From: a virus
Lineage: Duplodnaviria; Caudoviricetes
Length of the DNA: 64,000 bases
Virus record (IMG/VR): IMGVR_UViG_2816332268_000002
Span: 32,001-96,000 of that record
Strand: one strand, 5' to 3'
The position numbers and the translations under genes are program-made. This document shows, piece by piece, positions 8,826-63,821 of the stretch (its first letter is position 1; each line of letters begins with the position of its first letter). The notes below the pieces were generated by a model. The model did no database searches. It saw only the letters and a list, made by a program, of their open reading frames with translations, and had not been told where the DNA came from.

Positions 8826-8843
8826 TAAGTCACTTATGACTTA
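8826..8843 (+). promoter_or_regulatory. perfect palindromic phage box TAAGTCA-CTTA-TGACTTA
   Basis: Perfect ATAAGTCA-N4-TGACTTAT; overlaps the ATG at 8836. Confidence 0.85.
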
Positions 8844-22390: not shown

Positions 22391-22974
22391 TGAATCCGCT
22401 CGCGAAGATTGGTGTGCTTGCGCTTGCCTGCGCCATCGCCTTCGGCGCAGGCGCCTACGTCGACCGCCAGTTCGTGCTGGCATCGCGGGCAAAGCAGGAG
22501 GTGAAGGTTGTTGCGGGTGTAGCGACCGGCGTCGCAGTGGCGCAGACGAAGAGCAAGACGGTCGAGGCGGCAGTGACTGTCACTGCCGACAACATCGATC
22601 AGAACAAGGTCGCTATCCGTCATCGGGTTGCGGCGCAGATCAAGCGGGCCGTCGCGCCCGCGCCCACTCCCAGTGAGGAAGCACATGAAACGATGCGCGC
22701 TGCTTGCGGCGGCTTTTATCTTGATGTCGGCACTGTCCGCATGCTCAACGCAAGCCGCGCCGGAGTCGCTTTTCATTCCACCGCAAGCGGCGATGAAGCG
22801 GGCGACGCCGCTCCGGCCCTTTGCTTTACCGACTTCGTCGACGCCGACCAAGAACTGACGAAGCTCTACTTGGACCTGGCGCAGCGCCACGACGCGCTCG
22901 TCGATTCGGTGGAACAGTTTCAGAAGGAGCAGCGCGCGCGACTCGGTGTCGATGACACGCCGCTCGGCAAGTAG
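22390..22974 (+). CDS. inner-membrane spanin (Rz-like)
   Basis: N-terminal TM followed by a helical region; last gene of the lysis cassette. Confidence 0.75.
   Translation: MNPLAKIGVLALACAIAFGAGAYVDRQFVLASRAKQEVKVVAGVATGVAVAQTKSKTVEAAVTVTADNIDQNKVAIRHRVAAQIKRAVAPAPTPSEEAHETMRAACGGFYLDVGTVRMLNASRAGVAFHSTASGDEAGDAAPALCFTDFVDADQELTKLYLDLAQRHDALVDSVEQFQKEQRARLGVDDTPLGK
22685..22858 (+). CDS. outer-membrane lipoprotein spanin (Rz1-like), nested in Rz
   Basis: MKRCALLAAAFILMSALSA-C lipobox, Pro-rich mature part, GAGGAA RBS, +1 frame within Rz. Confidence 0.8.
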   Translation: MKRCALLAAAFILMSALSACSTQAAPESLFIPPQAAMKRATPLRPFALPTSSTPTKN

Positions 22975-22978
22975 GAAG

Positions 22979-23007
22979 CCTCCCCGAGCCGCATCTTCTC
23001 GGGGAGG
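22979..23007 (+). terminator. hairpin after lysis cassette
   Basis: CCTCCCCGAG-N9-CTCGGGGAGG; no clear U tract. Confidence 0.45.
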
Positions 23008-23128
23008 ATCTAGGATTGCTTGGGGCCAGGACCGCGCTCCCTCAATTTCTAACCTTTCTAAATTCCATGAACCTATACCTATAATTAATCTGAAACTTAT
23101 CAATAATGGAAATGAGAGGAAGCCCCAA

Positions 23129-23815
23129 GTGCTCCATGAATTTTTCGGCCAGTCGTTGACACCGGCGGATTGCGAAATGCTTGCGTTGTCTCGTATCGCG
23201 CCGTCGTCGCGGGCGGTGGAGGCGCTGCTATTTCTGCGTAAGTGGTTCGACTACCGCCATCTGCATCCCGTGCAAGCGACGTATCTATTCGCTCACGAGT
23301 ATCACGATGCAATCAAGCGGGCATACGCACGGCAGAAGGACATCCGCACTGTCGAGAAGATCAAGCCGATCGACGTAGCGGGGTTGTTCGATAGCCGGGA
23401 GCTGGCCGCCGTATGGCGAGCGAGGCAGGCGTTCGACGCGGTCGGATGCCGGTATGAGTTCGGCCTCGACTTCGTCGTGCGCCGGGCATGCGATCGCGGT
23501 TGGCGGACATTTCCCCGGCCCAACCAGCTCTATGCAGAAGAGGTGGCGCTGGATCTGCGCGACGCATGGATTGCCGAATGCAAGAAGTCAATCCAGCTGG
23601 CGCGTGACGAGCGTTTTCTGATTGAGAACTACCGCGGCCACCCTGACCAAATTGCATACCAAGCGTGGCAGATCGACCAGATCAAGAGCCGCGGTGGTAA
23701 CCGGGCAATGCTGCTTTCGCGGCTGCTGAGCGAGCGGGCCGTCTCTGAATCGGTGGCACGCGCGGCGTTCGGCGAGGTGACACTGCAGCAAGCGAAGCGT
23801 TTTTTTCTCAATTAG
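23129..23815 (+). CDS. phage hypothetical protein upstream of helicase (possible replication accessory)
   Basis: GTG start after GAGGAAG; KWFDYRHLHPVQATYLFA, PRPNQLY. Confidence 0.6.
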   Translation: MLHEFFGQSLTPADCEMLALSRIAPSSRAVEALLFLRKWFDYRHLHPVQATYLFAHEYHDAIKRAYARQKDIRTVEKIKPIDVAGLFDSRELAAVWRARQAFDAVGCRYEFGLDFVVRRACDRGWRTFPRPNQLYAEEVALDLRDAWIAECKKSIQLARDERFLIENYRGHPDQIAYQAWQIDQIKSRGGNRAMLLSRLLSERAVSESVARAAFGEVTLQQAKRFFLN

Positions 23816-23817
23816 AG

Positions 23818-23838
23818 TAAGTAAGCAATGACTATAAT
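23818..23838 (+). promoter_or_regulatory. phage box TAAGTAA-GCAA-TGACTAT fused to TATAAT; second half-site TAAGTCA at 23839
   Basis: A 24-mer here is identical at 26766; upstream of the Hfq-like gene. Confidence 0.85.
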
Positions 23839-23880
23839 TAAGTCATCGCTAATTTTTCATCAACTCACTGGAGTTCCAGC

Positions 23881-24264
23881 ATGACCCCCGAGCAAGCTCG
23901 CCAAGAACAGATCAACGCCGGCCGCCGAATGATTACGCTCGAGCATCGCACGCTCGAAAGCCGCACGGGCAGTGTCGCTCGTCCGCAGTATGGGGAACAG
24001 CGCCCGCGTGCCACCGCACGCCCGCCGAAGGGTCACGATGCCATCCTCAAGGCGATGCAGGAAGAACGTCAGCTCGCCACGATCATCACTACGGGTGACG
24101 TCACGTTCGAAGGGCTGGTGACCGGCCGCGACAAATATACGATCACGCTGCTGACCAAGCATCCGAAGGACTCGACGCGTCTGATTCGTCGCGTGTTCTA
24201 CAAGCATGCGATCGAACAGTTCTTCGGCGTGCCCCAGGACAGCGATACGTCGGCGGTGCAGTGA
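23881..24264 (+). CDS. hfq: Hfq-like (Sm-fold) RNA chaperone with N-terminal extension
   Basis: HDAILKAMQEER..ATIIT..FEG.V..RDKYTITL...VFYKHAI aligns with Hfq QDPFLNALRRER..VSIYL..LQG.I..FDQFVILL...MVYKHAI. Confidence 0.8.
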   Translation: MTPEQARQEQINAGRRMITLEHRTLESRTGSVARPQYGEQRPRATARPPKGHDAILKAMQEERQLATIITTGDVTFEGLVTGRDKYTITLLTKHPKDSTRLIRRVFYKHAIEQFFGVPQDSDTSAVQ

Positions 24265-25661
24265 TGAGCGTGGTGGCATTGTCAGCAGTGCCGTCGACGA
24301 CGCCGGCCGCAGAAGCGGCCGAGCCGCCGATGAGCAAGTTCCAGTTCGACGGTGACTTTCAGTCGCGTATTGCGGCCCTTACCCTGCGTGACACGTCCTT
24401 CAACCAGATGGTCGATGGGCTGGTCGAGCCGGGGCATTTCGAGTCTGAGATCGAGTCCTATCTTGTCAGCGTCGCGCTGCGCTACTGGAGCAAGTATCGC
24501 AAGGCACCGGCAAACATCGGCATCTACGCAATGCTATTGCGGGAAGACCTGGACGCCAAAGTGCTACCGAAAGCGCTCGGCGTTGCGGCGATCGCTCACC
24601 TGAAGAATCTGTTCGAGACGGACATTTCCGACCGCGACTTCGTGGTCGATCAGGTTGCGACGTTCGCTCGGCATCAGGCCATGCAGGCTGCGATGTTCAA
24701 GGCGATCCCGAAGCTCGACCGCAACGATTTCGACGGCATTTCGAAGCTCATGCAGACGGCGCTGAACGTCGGCGCGAACGCAGAGGGGGACACCTACGAT
24801 TTTGCGGCGTCGATTGACAACCGCACCGGCATCCGTCTGGAGCGCGCGTCGGGCAAGCTGCCGCCGCAAGGCATCACGACCGGCTACCGGGTGATCGACG
24901 ATCTGCTCTATCACCGCGGCTGGGGCCGCAAAGAGCTGTCGGTGCTACTGGGCGCTGCGAAGGCGGGCAAGACGACCGCGCTGATCGACTTCGGCATCGG
25001 TGCTTGGGCCGCCGGCCACAACGTCTACTACGCGTCGTGTGAAGTCTCGCGGGAGGTGATCTCCGACCGGATGGACGCCAACATCGCCGAGCAGGCAATG
25101 ATGGAGCTCGGGGCGCACACGCACGAAGTCCGCGACAAGGTTCGCCTGTTCGCAGACCGCGCGCGGCGCGCCGACGGCACGAACGCGAAGTTCATGATCG
25201 ACGAGTTCCCGACCGGCTCGCTGAAGGTGTCGGAGCTTCGTCGGCGTCTCGAGCGGTTCAAGCAGCAGGGCATCGTTTTCGATCTGGTCATCGTCGACTA
25301 CGCCGACATCATGTCGCCGGAGCGAGTCACGGACTCCGCGATCGAGAATTCCAAGTCGGTCTACGTTGACCTGCGCGGGTTGGCGATTCGAGAAGGGCTC
25401 GCAGTGCTGACCGCAACGCAGTCGAACCGGATCGGCGCGAACGCGAACGTCATCAAGGCCGAGCACGTCGCTGAAGACTTCAACAAGGTCCGTATCGCAG
25501 ACATCATCATTTCGATCAACCGCACCGAAGAAGAGCGCGCAGCGGGCCGGGCTCGGCTGTATTTCGCAGCGTCGCGAAACCAAGGCGGGGAATTCACGAT
25601 TGAGATCGAGCAGGCGATGGACCGGATGAAGTTCATTACCAAGGTGCTCGGCTTCGCATAA
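24264..25661 (+). CDS. dnaB: DnaB-like (SF4) replicative helicase
   Basis: Walker A GAAKAGKT, IVDYAD, TATQSNR. Confidence 0.9.
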   Translation: MSVVALSAVPSTTPAAEAAEPPMSKFQFDGDFQSRIAALTLRDTSFNQMVDGLVEPGHFESEIESYLVSVALRYWSKYRKAPANIGIYAMLLREDLDAKVLPKALGVAAIAHLKNLFETDISDRDFVVDQVATFARHQAMQAAMFKAIPKLDRNDFDGISKLMQTALNVGANAEGDTYDFAASIDNRTGIRLERASGKLPPQGITTGYRVIDDLLYHRGWGRKELSVLLGAAKAGKTTALIDFGIGAWAAGHNVYYASCEVSREVISDRMDANIAEQAMMELGAHTHEVRDKVRLFADRARRADGTNAKFMIDEFPTGSLKVSELRRRLERFKQQGIVFDLVIVDYADIMSPERVTDSAIENSKSVYVDLRGLAIREGLAVLTATQSNRIGANANVIKAEHVAEDFNKVRIADIIISINRTEEERAAGRARLYFAASRNQGGEFTIEIEQAMDRMKFITKVLGFA

Positions 25662-25670
25662 GGAGCAACA

Positions 25671-26774
25671 ATGGCGACTGACGATCTGTCAGAGCTGCTG
25701 GATACCATCGATATGCCCTCGTGGATGGATCGCGAGGGCATTTCTTATCGGCTCACGCACGGCCGATCGGGCCAGCAAATCAACGTGCGGGAATGCCCGA
25801 CGTGCGGCAACTCCGACTGGAAGGTCTACGTCAACGCCGACACCGGCGTCGGCAACTGCTTCGCCGGCTCGCACCCGGTCGAAGAGCGGATCTTCACCAA
25901 ATACCGGTTCATTCGCGACCATCTGGGTCGGCCGCACGGTTCGAAAGTCATCGAGCACATCAGGGCATACGCGCGCGAACAGGGCTGGCGGCCGGCGCGA
26001 CGTCAATCCGTCGAGGTCGAGAAGCATGTCGGCTGGGAGCTGCCGCAGCACATCGACCTACCTCATGAGGGGCGCAACCTCGCCTATCTCGAGAACCGCG
26101 GCATCACTGCGGACCTGTCTGCGTATTTTCACCTCGCCTACTGCCCGCGCGGTGCGCACTTCCGGTATCCGGCCGAGCGTGGTTGGGCCTACCAGGACTA
26201 CAGCGCACGCGTGCTGATCCCGGTGTTCGACATGGATGGGAAGCTCGCGACATTTCAGGGGCGCGACGTGACCGGCCATGCCGAGAAGAAGTATCTCTTC
26301 CCGCCGGGCATCGATGGATCGGGCGTGCATCTGTTCAACGGGCTCAACGTCCACGACACGAAGCGCATAGCGGTAGGTGAGGGCGCGTTCGACGTAGCGG
26401 CGATCAAGATCGCGCTCGACGCGGATCCGCAACTGCGCGACGTGGTTCCGGTGGGCACGTTCGGCAAGCACCTGTCGTCGGGCAGCGATAACAGTCAGCT
26501 CGCGAAGTTCATGTTGCTCAGGGAGCGCGGCGTCGAGGAGGTGACCTTCATGTGGGATGGGGAAGTTCAGGCGACCGACGACGCGGTCGAGGCCGGATTG
26601 ATGCTGCGCCAGCACGGGTTTCGCGTGCGTATCGCAATGCTTCCGCCCGAGAAAGATCCGAACGAGGTGCCTGCCGAGGTGGTGCGGCGCGCGTTCTATG
26701 GGGCGACGCTGCTGAACGGGGTGTCAGCGATGCAGCTCCGAATGAGTCGTCGTATTATGAATTCAAGTAAGTAA
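25671..26774 (+). CDS. DNA primase (Zn ribbon + TOPRIM)
   Basis: CPTCG..C...H zinc finger; FQGR; KYLFP; VGEGAFD; MWDGE; DPNE. Confidence 0.9.
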   Translation: MATDDLSELLDTIDMPSWMDREGISYRLTHGRSGQQINVRECPTCGNSDWKVYVNADTGVGNCFAGSHPVEERIFTKYRFIRDHLGRPHGSKVIEHIRAYAREQGWRPARRQSVEVEKHVGWELPQHIDLPHEGRNLAYLENRGITADLSAYFHLAYCPRGAHFRYPAERGWAYQDYSARVLIPVFDMDGKLATFQGRDVTGHAEKKYLFPPGIDGSGVHLFNGLNVHDTKRIAVGEGAFDVAAIKIALDADPQLRDVVPVGTFGKHLSSGSDNSQLAKFMLLRERGVEEVTFMWDGEVQATDDAVEAGLMLRQHGFRVRIAMLPPEKDPNEVPAEVVRRAFYGATLLNGVSAMQLRMSRRIMNSSK

Positions 26775-52747: not shown

Positions 52748-52838
52748 TATTTTGCGGGAAGTGGTCGAGTGTTGGTCTAGCCTGACTATACTTCAAAATG
52801 GGCGTCGAGCAGGGCGCTCATTTTTTTGCTCTGGATGA

Positions 52839-52856
52839 TAAGTTGGTAGTTACTTA
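52839..52856 (+). promoter_or_regulatory. phage box TAAGTTG-GTAG-TTACTTA overlapping TATCAT
   Basis: Consensus variant upstream of nrdA. Confidence 0.65.
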
Positions 52857-52893
52857 TCATCAGGACCTTCCTTCACCACCAAACAGATACAGC

Positions 52894-55155
<2,262 letters not shown>

Positions 55156-55201
55156 CCCAGAAGGGCCGGGCAACCGGCCCTGTTCGACTCCCAAAGTGAA
55201 C

Positions 55202-56194
55202 ATGAGCAACCACGCACAAATCATCAACGATCGCCGACTGGCGTTCGGTCCCCGCAGTGACCTGATGGCGATCTCGCCCGCAAAGCACAAGTGGGCGCGC
55301 GACCTCTGGCGGAAGATGAAAGCCAACAATTGGGATTTGCACGAAACCGACCTCACCGATGACGGTCCGTGCTATCGCAATCGACTGACCGAGGGCGAGC
55401 GGTTCGCTTACGACAGCGCGTTGTCGTTTGCGTCGAACCTCGACGGCATTCAGCTGCACAACCTCGCGAACATCGAGGCGTGCATCACTAGCCCGGAAGT
55501 CGAAATGTGCATCAAGCGCCAGATGTATGAGGAGGCCCTGCACGTCGACGCCTACAGCGAAATGGTGGAGACGGTGTCGGCTGACCCGATGTCGGTCTAC
55601 ATGCGCTTCGAACGTGACGGGATGTTGGCAGCCAAGAACGAGCACATTCTGCGTCAGGCCCGCATCCTCGCCGGCGAGAAGACGCCCGCGCAGTTCGCCC
55701 GATCGATCGTCGCCAACGTCGCGCTCGAGGGCATTTACTTCTACAGCGCGTTCCTCGTCTTCTACGCACTCGCACGCAACGGGAAGATGATCGGCTCGGC
55801 CGACAGCGTGAAGCTGATTCACCGCGACGAGCGGACGCACCTGGACCTGTTCGCGAAGATGCACGAAACGATGAAGCAGGAACGCCCGGAGCTCTACGAC
55901 GCTCAGTTCTACCGCGATGCCGAGCTGCTGCTGCGCGACGCGGTAGAGCTCGAATCGAAGTGGGGCGCCTACATCACGAGCAAGGGCGTGCTGGGCCTCA
56001 CCGCGCCGATCGTGGCCGGCTTTCTTCAGGAGCGCGCGAATGAGTGCGCGAAGCTCATCGGCATGCCGGAACTGTATCCGGGCGTGAAAACGCCGGTGCC
56101 GTGGTTCGTGCCGTTCTCCCAAGGCGAGGAGGTCAACTTCTTTGAGGGGAAGGTGGCCGACTACGCGGTGGGGACGCTGACGGATTGGGACTGA
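55202..56194 (+). CDS. nrdB: ribonucleotide reductase class Ia beta subunit
   Basis: EEALHVDAY, LEGIYFYSAF, IHRDERTH, NFFE...Y. Confidence 0.96.
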   Translation: MSNHAQIINDRRLAFGPRSDLMAISPAKHKWARDLWRKMKANNWDLHETDLTDDGPCYRNRLTEGERFAYDSALSFASNLDGIQLHNLANIEACITSPEVEMCIKRQMYEEALHVDAYSEMVETVSADPMSVYMRFERDGMLAAKNEHILRQARILAGEKTPAQFARSIVANVALEGIYFYSAFLVFYALARNGKMIGSADSVKLIHRDERTHLDLFAKMHETMKQERPELYDAQFYRDAELLLRDAVELESKWGAYITSKGVLGLTAPIVAGFLQERANECAKLIGMPELYPGVKTPVPWFVPFSQGEEVNFFEGKVADYAVGTLTDWD

Positions 56195-56244: not shown

Positions 56245-56412
56245 TGTAACTCTCGCCCTAACAGCGGGATTCGCCGCCGATAGTCGGTCCATCGACGCGA
56301 ATTGAGAATCAAGGTCGGGCGCTATGCCCGACCCAACCTGAAGTCATTGAAACCGTTTCGATATCGAGTAGCGCACCGGCGCCCGTCTCCGGTAGCGGCC
56401 TCAATGCCTTCA
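56245..56412 (+). ncRNA. candidate structured leader/ncRNA
   Basis: Three stem domains: 56269-74/56297-302, 56313-20/56326-33, 56339-50/56401-12. Confidence 0.45.
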
Positions 56413-57938: not shown

Positions 57939-58577
57939 ATGGACAACACGACCTACCGTAGCCGCGTTCTCGAAACCGAATCGAAGCCGCGCTCGCTCGA
58001 CTTCGGCCCGGCAACGCTGCTGGTCGCCCTGAACATGGCCGTCGCGGCGACGATGGTGCTGGATCAGGTCAAGCGCGCGATCTACTACGGCAAGGAAATG
58101 GACCCGAACAAAACGCTCGATTCGCTCGGAGTCATGCAGAGCGCGGGGGAGTCGCTGAAGTTCACGATCGGCACCGGCCGCTACCGCGACCCGATGGACG
58201 TCCACTTCTTCATGGACAAGCTGCCGAAGGAGGTCGTCCAGCAGATCAACCCGCAAAACGTCGACATGCGCCTGCTGCATGCGGCGCTGGGCAGCTTCAC
58301 CGAGTCGGGCGAACTGATCGAAGCGCTGCTGCCGACGCTGCTGGGCAAGCCGGTCGACCGCGTGAACGTCGCGGAAGAGCTGGGTGACGCGAACTGGTAT
58401 GGCGAAATCGCGCTCGACGCGCTGGGCCTGACCCGCGAGGAGGTCAACGCGGCGAACATCAAGAAGCTGCAGGACAAGAAGGCGGGCCGCTACAAGGCCG
58501 GCACTTTCCTCTCGGACGACGCGGTGAACCGCGACACGGGCGCCGAACGCGCGGTGCTGGAGGCAGCGGTTGCATGA
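57939..58577 (+). CDS. MazG-like nucleotide pyrophosphohydrolase
   Basis: LLHAALG..TESGEL, EELGD..WY, NIKKL..RY. Confidence 0.8.
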   Translation: MDNTTYRSRVLETESKPRSLDFGPATLLVALNMAVAATMVLDQVKRAIYYGKEMDPNKTLDSLGVMQSAGESLKFTIGTGRYRDPMDVHFFMDKLPKEVVQQINPQNVDMRLLHAALGSFTESGELIEALLPTLLGKPVDRVNVAEELGDANWYGEIALDALGLTREEVNAANIKKLQDKKAGRYKAGTFLSDDAVNRDTGAERAVLEAAVA

Positions 58578-62148: not shown

Positions 62149-62613
62149 ATGCCGAAACTCCACATTCCGCGCTTGGGTGCGGACCTCGTCCTCTTGAGCG
62201 ACTGGTCGTTCCGCCTGTTTCACGAGCACCGCAACTCCGGTCTGCAATCGGCGGTTGGGCTGGCGAACCCCTTCAGCGGCCTTCAGGACTTCTGGGGCGC
62301 GAAGCCGGCAGAGCGATTCGCCGCGCTCGAGAAGTCGCAGTGGCGTGAGGCAGACGGGTCGCTGAGCACGGTGAAGGAGCGCTACTTCAATGGCGAGCTC
62401 CAGCACCCGCTGACGATCCCGACCGGCGCACTCCTGACGATTGATCGCATCTTCATTCGTAGGGGCGCCGCTGATTACGACAGCGTGACCTTCTGGCTTA
62501 AGGCGTCGAAGGTGCCGGTAACGATCAACAGTCGACAGGTGAAGAAGAGCGTTCGCTTCTGGGCAAAGCTGGACGACGTGAACCACATCGAATTCGAGGA
62601 ACAGAGCGTATGA
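62149..62613 (+). CDS. phage hypothetical protein
   Basis: AAGGAG RBS; IDRIFIRRG...SVTF...RFWAKL. Confidence 0.65.
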   Translation: MPKLHIPRLGADLVLLSDWSFRLFHEHRNSGLQSAVGLANPFSGLQDFWGAKPAERFAALEKSQWREADGSLSTVKERYFNGELQHPLTIPTGALLTIDRIFIRRGAADYDSVTFWLKASKVPVTINSRQVKKSVRFWAKLDDVNHIEFEEQSV

Positions 62614-63821
62614 AGCAAGTCATCAGCGAGCAGGGTTCGCGCCCGATCAAAATCTGGACGAACGATATCGAGGACGAGGCACTGACGCAGGCGAAGAATC
62701 TCGCGCGCCTCCCGTTCATCGCCAGCAACGGCGTCGCTCTCATGCCCGACGTGCATGCCGGAAAGGGTTCGACGATCGGCTCGGTCATCGCGACCGAGAA
62801 GGCGATCATCCCCGCCGCGGTTGGTGTGGACATAGGCTGCGGCATGAACGCAGTGCGCCTGTCGTTGAAGGCGAGCGACCTCCCGGAAAGTCTCACCTCG
62901 ATTCGCCATCAGATCGAGCGGGACGTGCCGCTGGGTGCCGGCGGCCGGCATCAACGGGACAGTGACGTCCACGCGAACACCATGCGCCTGCCGGCGATGC
63001 CGAGCGATCGCGTTGAGGCCGTGCTCGCTGACGAGATCGTCGGCTCCAGGCACAAGGTCTACGAGAAGGCAGCCAACCAACTCGGCACGCTCGGCTCGGG
63101 CAACCACTTCATCGAGCTTTGCATCGACGAGAATCAGGACGTGTGGGTGATGCTCCACTCCGGCTCGCGCGGCATCGGCAACATGATCGGCAGCTACTTC
63201 ATCGAGAAGGCGAAGAAGCGCATGGAGCTGCACTTCATCAACCTGCCCGATGGTGACCTCGCCTATATCCCGGAGGACACCGACGACTTCCGTGATTACA
63301 TGGCCGCGGTCCAGTGGGCGCAGGACTACGCGCTCGAAAACCGCAAGGTGATGATGCAGTCCGTCATCGCGGCGCTGCGCCGACACATTCCGATCGAGTT
63401 CGCGATCACGCAGGAGGCGATCAACTGTCACCACAACTACGTCGCGCGCGAGAACCACTTCGGCCGCAACCTGTGGGTGACGCGCAAGGGGGCTATTCGC
63501 GCCCGCGAAGGTGACCTCGGCATCATCCCCGGTTCGATGGGCCAGCGCAGCTACATCGTGCGCGGGAAGGGCAACCCGCAGTCCTACTGCTCGTGCTCGC
63601 ACGGTGCCGGCCGCGTGATGAGCCGCGCCAAAGCGAAACGGATGTTCAACCTCGACGACCTCGCGGCCCAGACCGAGGGCGTGGAGTGCCGCAAGGACGC
63701 AGACGTGCTGGACGAGATTCCGGGCGCCTACAAAAACCTGGACGTCGTCATGGGCAACCAGACGGATCTGGTCGAAGTCGTCCACACGCTGAAAGCGATC
63801 ATGTGCGTGAAGGGGGCGTGA
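62610..63821 (+). CDS. rtcB: RtcB RNA ligase
   Basis: MPDVHAG, VGVDIGCG, GTLGSGNHFIE, HSGSRG, HHN, RKGA, PGSMG, SCSHGAGR, DEIPGAYK. Confidence 0.96.
   Translation: MKQVISEQGSRPIKIWTNDIEDEALTQAKNLARLPFIASNGVALMPDVHAGKGSTIGSVIATEKAIIPAAVGVDIGCGMNAVRLSLKASDLPESLTSIRHQIERDVPLGAGGRHQRDSDVHANTMRLPAMPSDRVEAVLADEIVGSRHKVYEKAANQLGTLGSGNHFIELCIDENQDVWVMLHSGSRGIGNMIGSYFIEKAKKRMELHFINLPDGDLAYIPEDTDDFRDYMAAVQWAQDYALENRKVMMQSVIAALRRHIPIEFAITQEAINCHHNYVARENHFGRNLWVTRKGAIRAREGDLGIIPGSMGQRSYIVRGKGNPQSYCSCSHGAGRVMSRAKAKRMFNLDDLAAQTEGVECRKDADVLDEIPGAYKNLDVVMGNQTDLVEVVHTLKAIMCVKGA

Follow-up and report, generated by a model that had tools for sequence, protein, structure and literature searches.

A predicted Hfq-like protein encoded ahead of the replicative helicase gene in ~105-kb phages keeps the proximal face of Hfq but not the distal face or the rim

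The window (the whole stretch of 64,000 nucleotides analysed here) was taken from a 104,464-bp provirus record (94% complete, with a tyrosine integrase at one end), in which no ParA (AAA_31) match was found. The record represents an integrated provirus, many relatives of which are phage-plasmids, and its nearest named proteins are those of Burkholderia cepacia and B. vietnamiensis. The ~105-kb size and the block of phrog_2500, dnaB and primase genes are common to the lineage related to the SSU5 and AB groups of phage-plasmids (PMC7969092), and the same block also ties the element to Nickievirus and Rhizobium phages. The following features were assigned at the locus.

22946-23815, + strand: conserved all-helical protein, phrog_2500 (start likely near 23130)
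23818-23838, + strand: palindromic box TAAGT(A/C)A-N4-TGACT(A/T) overlapping a TATAAT -10 hexamer (pattern search)
23839-23856: weaker second copy of the box
23881-24264, + strand: Hfq-like (Sm-fold) phage gene, 127 aa (ORF, Pfam, AlphaFold2 and fold matches)
23881-24030, + strand: N-terminal arm, residues 1-50 (helix predicted at 3-18, followed by a basic linker modelled with low confidence)
24031-24228, + strand: Sm core, residues 51-116 (family motifs GHD, RDK(Y/F)TIT and (Y/F)K(H/S)AIE)
24199-24213, + strand: Sm2 motif YKHAI, residues 107-111
24264-25661, + strand: DnaB-like replicative helicase (Pfam DnaB_C 1e-13, phrog_19 3e-71)
25671-26774, + strand: DNA primase (phrog_47 3e-47)

The ribosome-binding site of the Hfq-like gene is GGAG at 23870-23873, and its stop codon is overlapped by 1 nt by the helicase ATG at 24264. 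An in-frame GTG at 24261 is an alternative helicase start; because close relatives have only TGATG or TAATG, ATG is the likelier one, so that of the coupling through GTGATG described in the initial annotation the stop-start overlap stands and the GTG start is disfavoured. The phage box fused to TATAAT, described in the same annotation, is present at 23818-23838 and is retained with its -10 hexamer before the Hfq-like gene in close relatives; no sigma-70 -35 element was found at this promoter (23818-23838 region). The box and hexamer are a probable operator/promoter of an operon consisting of the Hfq-like, dnaB and primase genes. Since the pattern gave 16 strict matches in the 104-kb element against 0.22 expected, the Hfq-like gene heads one of many co-regulated operons, which are most plausibly repressed in the prophage. 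In the form TAAGT(A/C)A-N4-TGACT(T/A)A the box precedes many operons from 1677 to 46680 of the window and beyond, often fused to a -10 hexamer (examples at 8828, 15826, 21115, 23820, 26770, 28223, 34896, 41530, 46660 and 56218), and it is probably the operator of one phage regulator.

The phrog_2500 gene always lies upstream of the Hfq-like gene, or of dnaB where the Hfq-like gene is missing. Its product (~220 aa), encoded ahead of dnaB in Nickievirus and Rhizobium phages and in over 900 plasmid records of the SSU5/AB type, was modelled confidently (pLDDT 94) with no clear structural match (best Z 4.5), and is a candidate replication initiator, helicase loader or regulator. A phoH gene stands just before phrog_2500 in most relatives and is absent from that place here. 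Over 23165-25661, dS against a close relative was 0.60 for the upstream gene, 0.78 for the Hfq-like gene and 0.24 for dnaB, and this inequality suggests recombination at the dnaB start between close relatives.

The coding sequence was compared with that of a Burkholderia cepacia relative, giving a dN/dS of 0.08 for the Hfq-like gene overall, 0.13 for the N-terminal arm and 0.018 for the Sm core (22 synonymous and 2 non-synonymous differences), the last being comparably low to that of the helicase (0.027). The gene is under strong purifying selection, and a chance ORF or a decayed gene was ruled out by dN/dS and by a codon-position GC resembling that of the neighbours. The arginine-rich arm of ~50 aa and the loop insertion ahead of the Sm2 motif, both pointed out previously, were found again: the arm has 9 R and 1 K against 5 E over 51 residues, and the insertion is real, lineage-specific and located at about residues 92-100 of the Sm core. 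Across the family the arm has a median length of 42 and a net positive charge in 99% of members. The protein contains no cysteine and is thus without an N-terminal C2H2 zinc finger.

The AlphaFold2 model has an alpha1-beta1-5 Sm topology with a core pLDDT >90. The top fold matches of this monomer model by Foldseek and VIA-align were all Hfq structures, S. aureus Hfq (1KQ1) being superimposed with Z 10.6 and an rmsd of 1.1 Å over 60 residues, and LSm/SmAP structures scored below them (Z 9.3 or less). Structure prediction, which had been suggested as a check on the Sm fold, thereby supports it, and the predicted fold of the 23881-24264 product is of the Hfq type. The family profile matches B. 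subtilis Hfq at 5e-12 and S. aureus Hfq at 8e-12, and atlas look-alikes are Hfq/Hfq_1 clusters, mostly of Acidobacteriota. The Pfam Hfq model PF17209 was matched at E=4.5e-6, with 26.6 bits in one search and 27.1 in another at a gathering cut-off of 27; members from Cupriavidus (43.5 bits) and Aeromonas (36.9 bits) pass this cut-off, and those of nickie and Acinetobacter fall below it. The score against the TIGR02383 equivalog was 21.3 bits (cut-off 61.7; E. coli Hfq control 99.6) and that against PRK00395 was 14.3 bits (cut-off 95; E. coli Hfq control 148.5). The protein belongs to the Sm/Hfq superfamily but lies outside the canonical Hfq equivalog.

Residues were numbered against Hfq of E. 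coli MG1655, with an offset of 44 between Hfq and phage numbering. D9, L12, A14, E18, R19, G34, D40, Y42, K56 and H57 match the E. coli protein, Y25, K31, R16 and R17 are replaced by I, T, Q and E, respectively, and the exact YKHAI lies at 24199-24213 (residues 107-111), all as listed in the initial annotation; the matches at A14, E18 and R19 are of little weight, however, because these positions are not conserved in the family (41%, 10% and 14%). Exact YKHAI occurs in 79 of 156 members, and the nearest metagenomic relatives have YKSAI. A family signature absent from that list comprises Q8 to H (99%), Q41 to K/R (94%) and F39 to R (77%), together with D/E9, D40 (100%), aromatic 42 (99%), K56 (100%) and H/S57; T43 (96%), T/S45 (99%) and an acidic residue at 60 (79%) are family-specific conserved residues near the subunit interface.

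The proximal uridine pocket, formed here by H52, D53, K85, Y86, K108 and H109, is present with the Q8-to-H change, and all six residue classes are retained in 147 of 156 members. The distal A-rich site (Y25, G29, K31, Q33 and Q52) is absent, its positions being occupied by I69, D73, T75, E77 and R104, and so is the rim arginine patch of the Gram-negative type (R16/R17/R19), replaced by Q60, E61 and R63. Position 25 is aromatic in 6% and position 31 basic in 12% of members, and rim positions 16, 17 and 19 are basic in 8%, 7% and 40%. Mean entropy over the 156 members, a set gathered with a profile favouring these positions so that the conservation figures are inflated, was 0.59 bits for the proximal pocket, 0.67 for the structural core, 2.09 for the rim and 2.87 for the distal face. 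The proposal of a kept proximal face with loss of the distal face and rim is thus borne out by the residue comparison and the family entropies, and the protein would work at most like the proximal half of Hfq. K56, H57, D40 and position 8 contribute to ring assembly in Hfq as well, and part of the pocket conservation may be structural. Both Acinetobacter subgroups, which were found by gene order, carry Glu instead of the uridine-stacking aromatic 42 and retain D40, K56 and H57; to judge from these members, the gene can persist without the stacking aromatic. For Hfq itself, recognition of U-rich RNA ending in a free 3'-OH is assigned to Q8, 41, 42, K56 and H57; the proximal face is reported to accept no nucleic acid but RNA, DNA being bound in addition by the distal face and the edge, and annealing is driven by the rim arginines (PMC10628458, PMC4963395).

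When 1.84 billion representatives were searched with a profile, 550 clusters reached E<=0.001 and 208 reached E<=1e-10; the best 150 of the 550 were examined, and the weaker tail may include ordinary Hfq. Synteny of hfq and dnaB in relatives, for which a survey had been suggested, was the same throughout with few exceptions: the order phrog_2500, Hfq-like gene, dnaB was found at 17 of 17 viral loci (close alignment; two from one contig), and among 11 members looked up across the tree ten have a confirmed DnaB downstream, one of them with a 77-aa gene between, and the eleventh has a cut, unannotated 441-aa gene in the place of dnaB. A stop/start overlap or a gap of <=36 nt to dnaB is maintained across deep divergence. 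By way of the upstream gene, members were found in the phage-plasmids of Cupriavidus, of Aeromonas and of both Acinetobacter subgroups and in Pseudomonas phage nickie (CNR34_00048); 154 Acinetobacter plasmid records have a member, and Burkholderia is also among the carriers. SSU5, pHCM2, a Klebsiella element and three Rhizobium elements have nothing in this slot, and searching their whole genomes with the profile, which did detect the nickie and E. coli hfq controls, found no member in any of them. Neither a species-genome scan with the close alignment nor a tblastn search of cultured phages with the protein gave a match, even though there is a member in nickie. Stenotrophomonas phage BUCTxx99 and Xanthomonas phage JGB6 have genes of 68-69 aa at this position that look by eye like minimal Sm folds lacking the Hfq pocket; these were rejected as members, since their hhalign probability was 2-3% and they gave no Pfam match and no genome-wide match.

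In the PHROG scan of the protein, phrog_5258 and phrog_19781 were the sole matches. Both come from Acinetobacter AB-group phage-plasmids, where they occupy the same gene slot with Glu at 42 and arms longer than in this phage protein, and a family profile matches the phrog_5258 protein at 5e-12. Both are divergent members of the Hfq-like family, and two PHROG families without an assigned function thereby gain a fold.

Members are 18-37% identical to canonical Hfq (median 28%), which is itself 89-100% identical across the hosts' phylum. In a tree of 57 columns, built with proteobacterial Hfq and leaving aside the Firmicute and alphaproteobacterial proteins, the 17 proteobacterial Hfq sequences group together in a separate clade (0.987) that includes no phage protein. 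Identity between pairs of Sm cores tracks identity between the neighbouring helicases (Mantel rho 0.87, p 0.0005, n 22), and this co-divergence shows long vertical inheritance but is no sign of physical contact. Recent capture of a host hfq was ruled out by the separate clade, the helicase-tracking divergence and the 28% median identity. As the best explanation of these comparisons, the gene appears to be ancient and vertically inherited in ~105-kb phages related to SSU5, AB and Nickievirus. RefSeq automatically labels many members 'RNA chaperone Hfq', a misleading name that is corrected here. A literature search that left most subscription journals outside its reach turned up no description of these proteins, of their synteny or of their altered faces, and the family is apparently undescribed.

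The RNA of 56245-56412, which had been offered as a possible client of the protein, was analysed separately. It is a structured non-coding leader that follows a box/-10 promoter and leads up to a 61-aa ORF. A GGTCGGGC/GCCCGACC hairpin is conserved in it, a CATTGA/TCAATG stem immediately precedes the ribosome-binding site of the ORF, and its folding is modest (z -2.3). It is present in 5 of 5 close relatives in differing gene contexts and in just 7 viral stretches, all from close relatives. No Rfam match was obtained, and BLASTN, at its limited sensitivity, found no copy in the Cupriavidus, Acinetobacter, Aeromonas and nickie genomes. On the transcribed strand there is no U-rich 3' tail, and the element looks like a 5' leader. 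The client proposal is not upheld by this restriction to the closest relatives, the missing tail and the leader-like organisation, and the confinement to close relatives led to rejection of the element as a family-wide partner. No U-tailed sRNA of the phage was identified as a partner, which counts against the transcript-binding ring proposed below.

The protein was compared with known systems, the Hfq set comprising Pfam PF17209 and TIGR02383 and the structures of E. coli (1HK9), S. aureus (1KQ1/1KQ2) and B. subtilis (3AHU) Hfq. It shares with bacterial Hfq the alpha1-beta1-5 Sm fold, D9, G34, D40, aromatic 42 and Y55-K56-H57, and with Gram-positive Hfq the D-K-Y run at 40-42 and an arginine-poor rim. 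It differs from bacterial Hfq in its low identity (about 25%), in H8, R39, T43, T45 and E60, in the lack of the Y25/K31 distal site and of R16/R17, in having a basic N-terminal arm of 40-50 residues where bacterial Hfq has a long C-terminal tail, and in standing in a replication operon rather than in miaA-hfq-hflX. The GoF/MotB.1/Frd.2 proteins of T4 and other Tevenvirinae (Kim et al. 2025, PMC12152347) likewise have a phage Sm-like fold, prereplicative expression and a link to helicase expression; they were recognised by structure prediction alone, however, with the fold N-terminal and FeoA-type SH3 domains nearest, whereas the present family can be recognised as Hfq from its sequence, retains the uridine pocket and adjoins the helicase gene. 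Proteins of Thermococcus and Methanocaldococcus plasmids (Krupovic et al. 2013, PMC3543421) are similar in that a mobile element encodes an Hfq-like domain directly next to a helicase gene and probably co-transcribed with it, and a role of these Hfq-like proteins in replication was proposed; they are mostly fused to an N-terminal C2H2 zinc finger, unlike the cysteine-free phage protein, and are encoded downstream rather than upstream of the helicase gene. Hfq3 of Bacillus anthracis pXO1 and other Bacillus plasmid Hfq (PMC5348863) are also extra copies on mobile elements in hosts with their own Hfq, but Hfq3 is near-canonical, requires the distal face for its effects and has no link to replication genes.

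From the observed fold, surfaces, selection and gene context we infer an oligomer, RNA binding, its timing and its targets as follows. The explanation we prefer, tentatively, is a homo-ring of the early lytic phase to which phage transcripts bind by their U-rich 3' ends and which does none of the matchmaking typical of Hfq. The protein would be made along with the helicase on derepression of the lytic replication programme and would assemble into its own homo-ring, probably a hexamer, the proximal pore of which could bind single-stranded U-rich RNA, most likely at 3' ends. The basic arms and R39 may make up for the missing rim arginines through non-specific contacts to the backbone. With neither an A-rich distal site nor an arginine patch, such a ring would hold and protect early and replication transcripts of the phage, or time their decay or translation, rather than pair sRNAs with mRNAs. 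A precedent is T4 GoF, of which the D25Y form stabilises the mRNA of helicase gene 41 independently of Hfq (PMC12152347). An RNA-protecting role alone does not explain the fixed place beside dnaB, and the enterobacterial and Rhizobium relatives lacking the gene count against the reading, as the Acinetobacter members with Glu42 also appear to do. The name 'Hfq-like RNA chaperone' given initially therefore holds for the Hfq fold, the kept proximal face and the coupling to dnaB; chaperone activity in the Hfq sense, that is, annealing of sRNA to mRNA, is not supported because both annealing surfaces are not conserved and the equivalog cut-off was missed. It is accordingly very improbable that the protein is a canonical Hfq, taking over from the host chaperone or adding to it and annealing sRNAs such as the 56245-56412 RNA to mRNAs: the Hfq fold with its Sm2 motif and the RefSeq name 'RNA chaperone Hfq' on many members would suit this reading, and basic arms could substitute for the rim, but TIGR02383 gives 21.3 bits against 61.7, residue 25 is aromatic in 6%, residue 31 basic in 12% and residues 16/17 basic in 8%/7% of members, and the 56245 element, limited to the nearest relatives, reads as a 5' leader.

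The position of the gene is better accounted for, and the kept face less well, if the protein is an accessory of the helicase or primase, which would also fit the Acinetobacter variants better than an RNA-binding ring does. This alternative, in which the six-fold ring or the N-terminal helix binds helicase or primase, or else ssDNA or primer RNA at the origin or fork, and so helps to load or regulate the helicase, is possible but distinctly less probable than the transcript-binding ring. It draws on the overlap or gap of <=36 nt to dnaB across deep divergence, the divergence of the Sm core in step with the helicase (Mantel rho 0.87), the keeping of the gene in Acinetobacter elements despite loss of aromatic 42, the Hfq-like genes directly beside helicase genes in unrelated Thermococcus plasmids (PMC3543421) and the use of host Hfq as a structural ring in the T4 neck (PMC12929587). 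Co-inherited neighbours co-diverge without touching, however, and binding cannot be read from the Mantel result; in one relative the 77-aa gene separates the Hfq-like gene from dnaB, homologous helicases function without the protein in SSU5, pHCM2, the Klebsiella element and Rhizobium phages, and the face that is kept is the RNA-specific one whereas the DNA-binding distal face and edge are lost. In a narrower form, rather doubtful, the Sm ring would be a dedicated replisome partner, a hexamer docked on helicase or primase and handling primer or origin RNA; these phages and archaeal plasmids would then have put the Hfq fold to such a use independently. Takeover of the host, by a homo-ring that sponges host sRNAs through their U-tails or by subunits that poison host Hfq rings, is unlikely. 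A ring with a proximal site only has the chemistry of a sponge, the known hosts, all of them Proteobacteria, possess Hfq, subunits at Sm interfaces touch largely through their backbones and Y55, K56, I59 and L12 are kept, T2 infection disturbs the pairing of RNAs by Hfq (bioRxiv 10.64898/2026.06.19.733364), and overexpressed pXO1 Hfq3 is toxic (PMC5348863); that toxicity requires the distal face lost here, though, and the gene heads a replication operon and not a moron or takeover cluster. At 18-37% identity to canonical Hfq, against 89-100% within the hosts' phylum, the members do not mimic a host subunit, and T43, T/S45 and acidic 60 beside the interface suggest a private ring. The dominant-negative subunit appears the weakest of the three functions first proposed, given that the family diverges along with the phage helicase, conserves interface residues of its own and gives no indication of rapid change. 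A structural use independent of RNA, for instance as a transient plug in virion assembly, scarcely comes into consideration: host Hfq hexamer does seal the T4 neck (PMC12929587; PDB 9LU5), but T4 gp14 binds Hfq K31, Q33, R19, T49 and S65 (PMC12929587), which are freely variable positions here, and the gene lies in the replication operon and not in the morphogenesis region.

Hfq is usually seen as a host factor that phages borrow or disturb, and here a large lineage, including Acinetobacter baumannii and Aeromonas phage-plasmids and a culturable Pseudomonas phage, has long kept its own version. With one RNA face preserved and two discarded, it amounts to a natural separation-of-function Hfq, and the question raised in 2013, why mobile elements place Hfq-like genes beside helicases, is now testable in a bacterial phage that can be grown. 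Further genes for RNA and nucleotide handling in the window are those of an RtcB RNA ligase (62610-63821), a MazG-like pyrophosphatase (57939-58577) and a class Ia ribonucleotide reductase (52798-56194).
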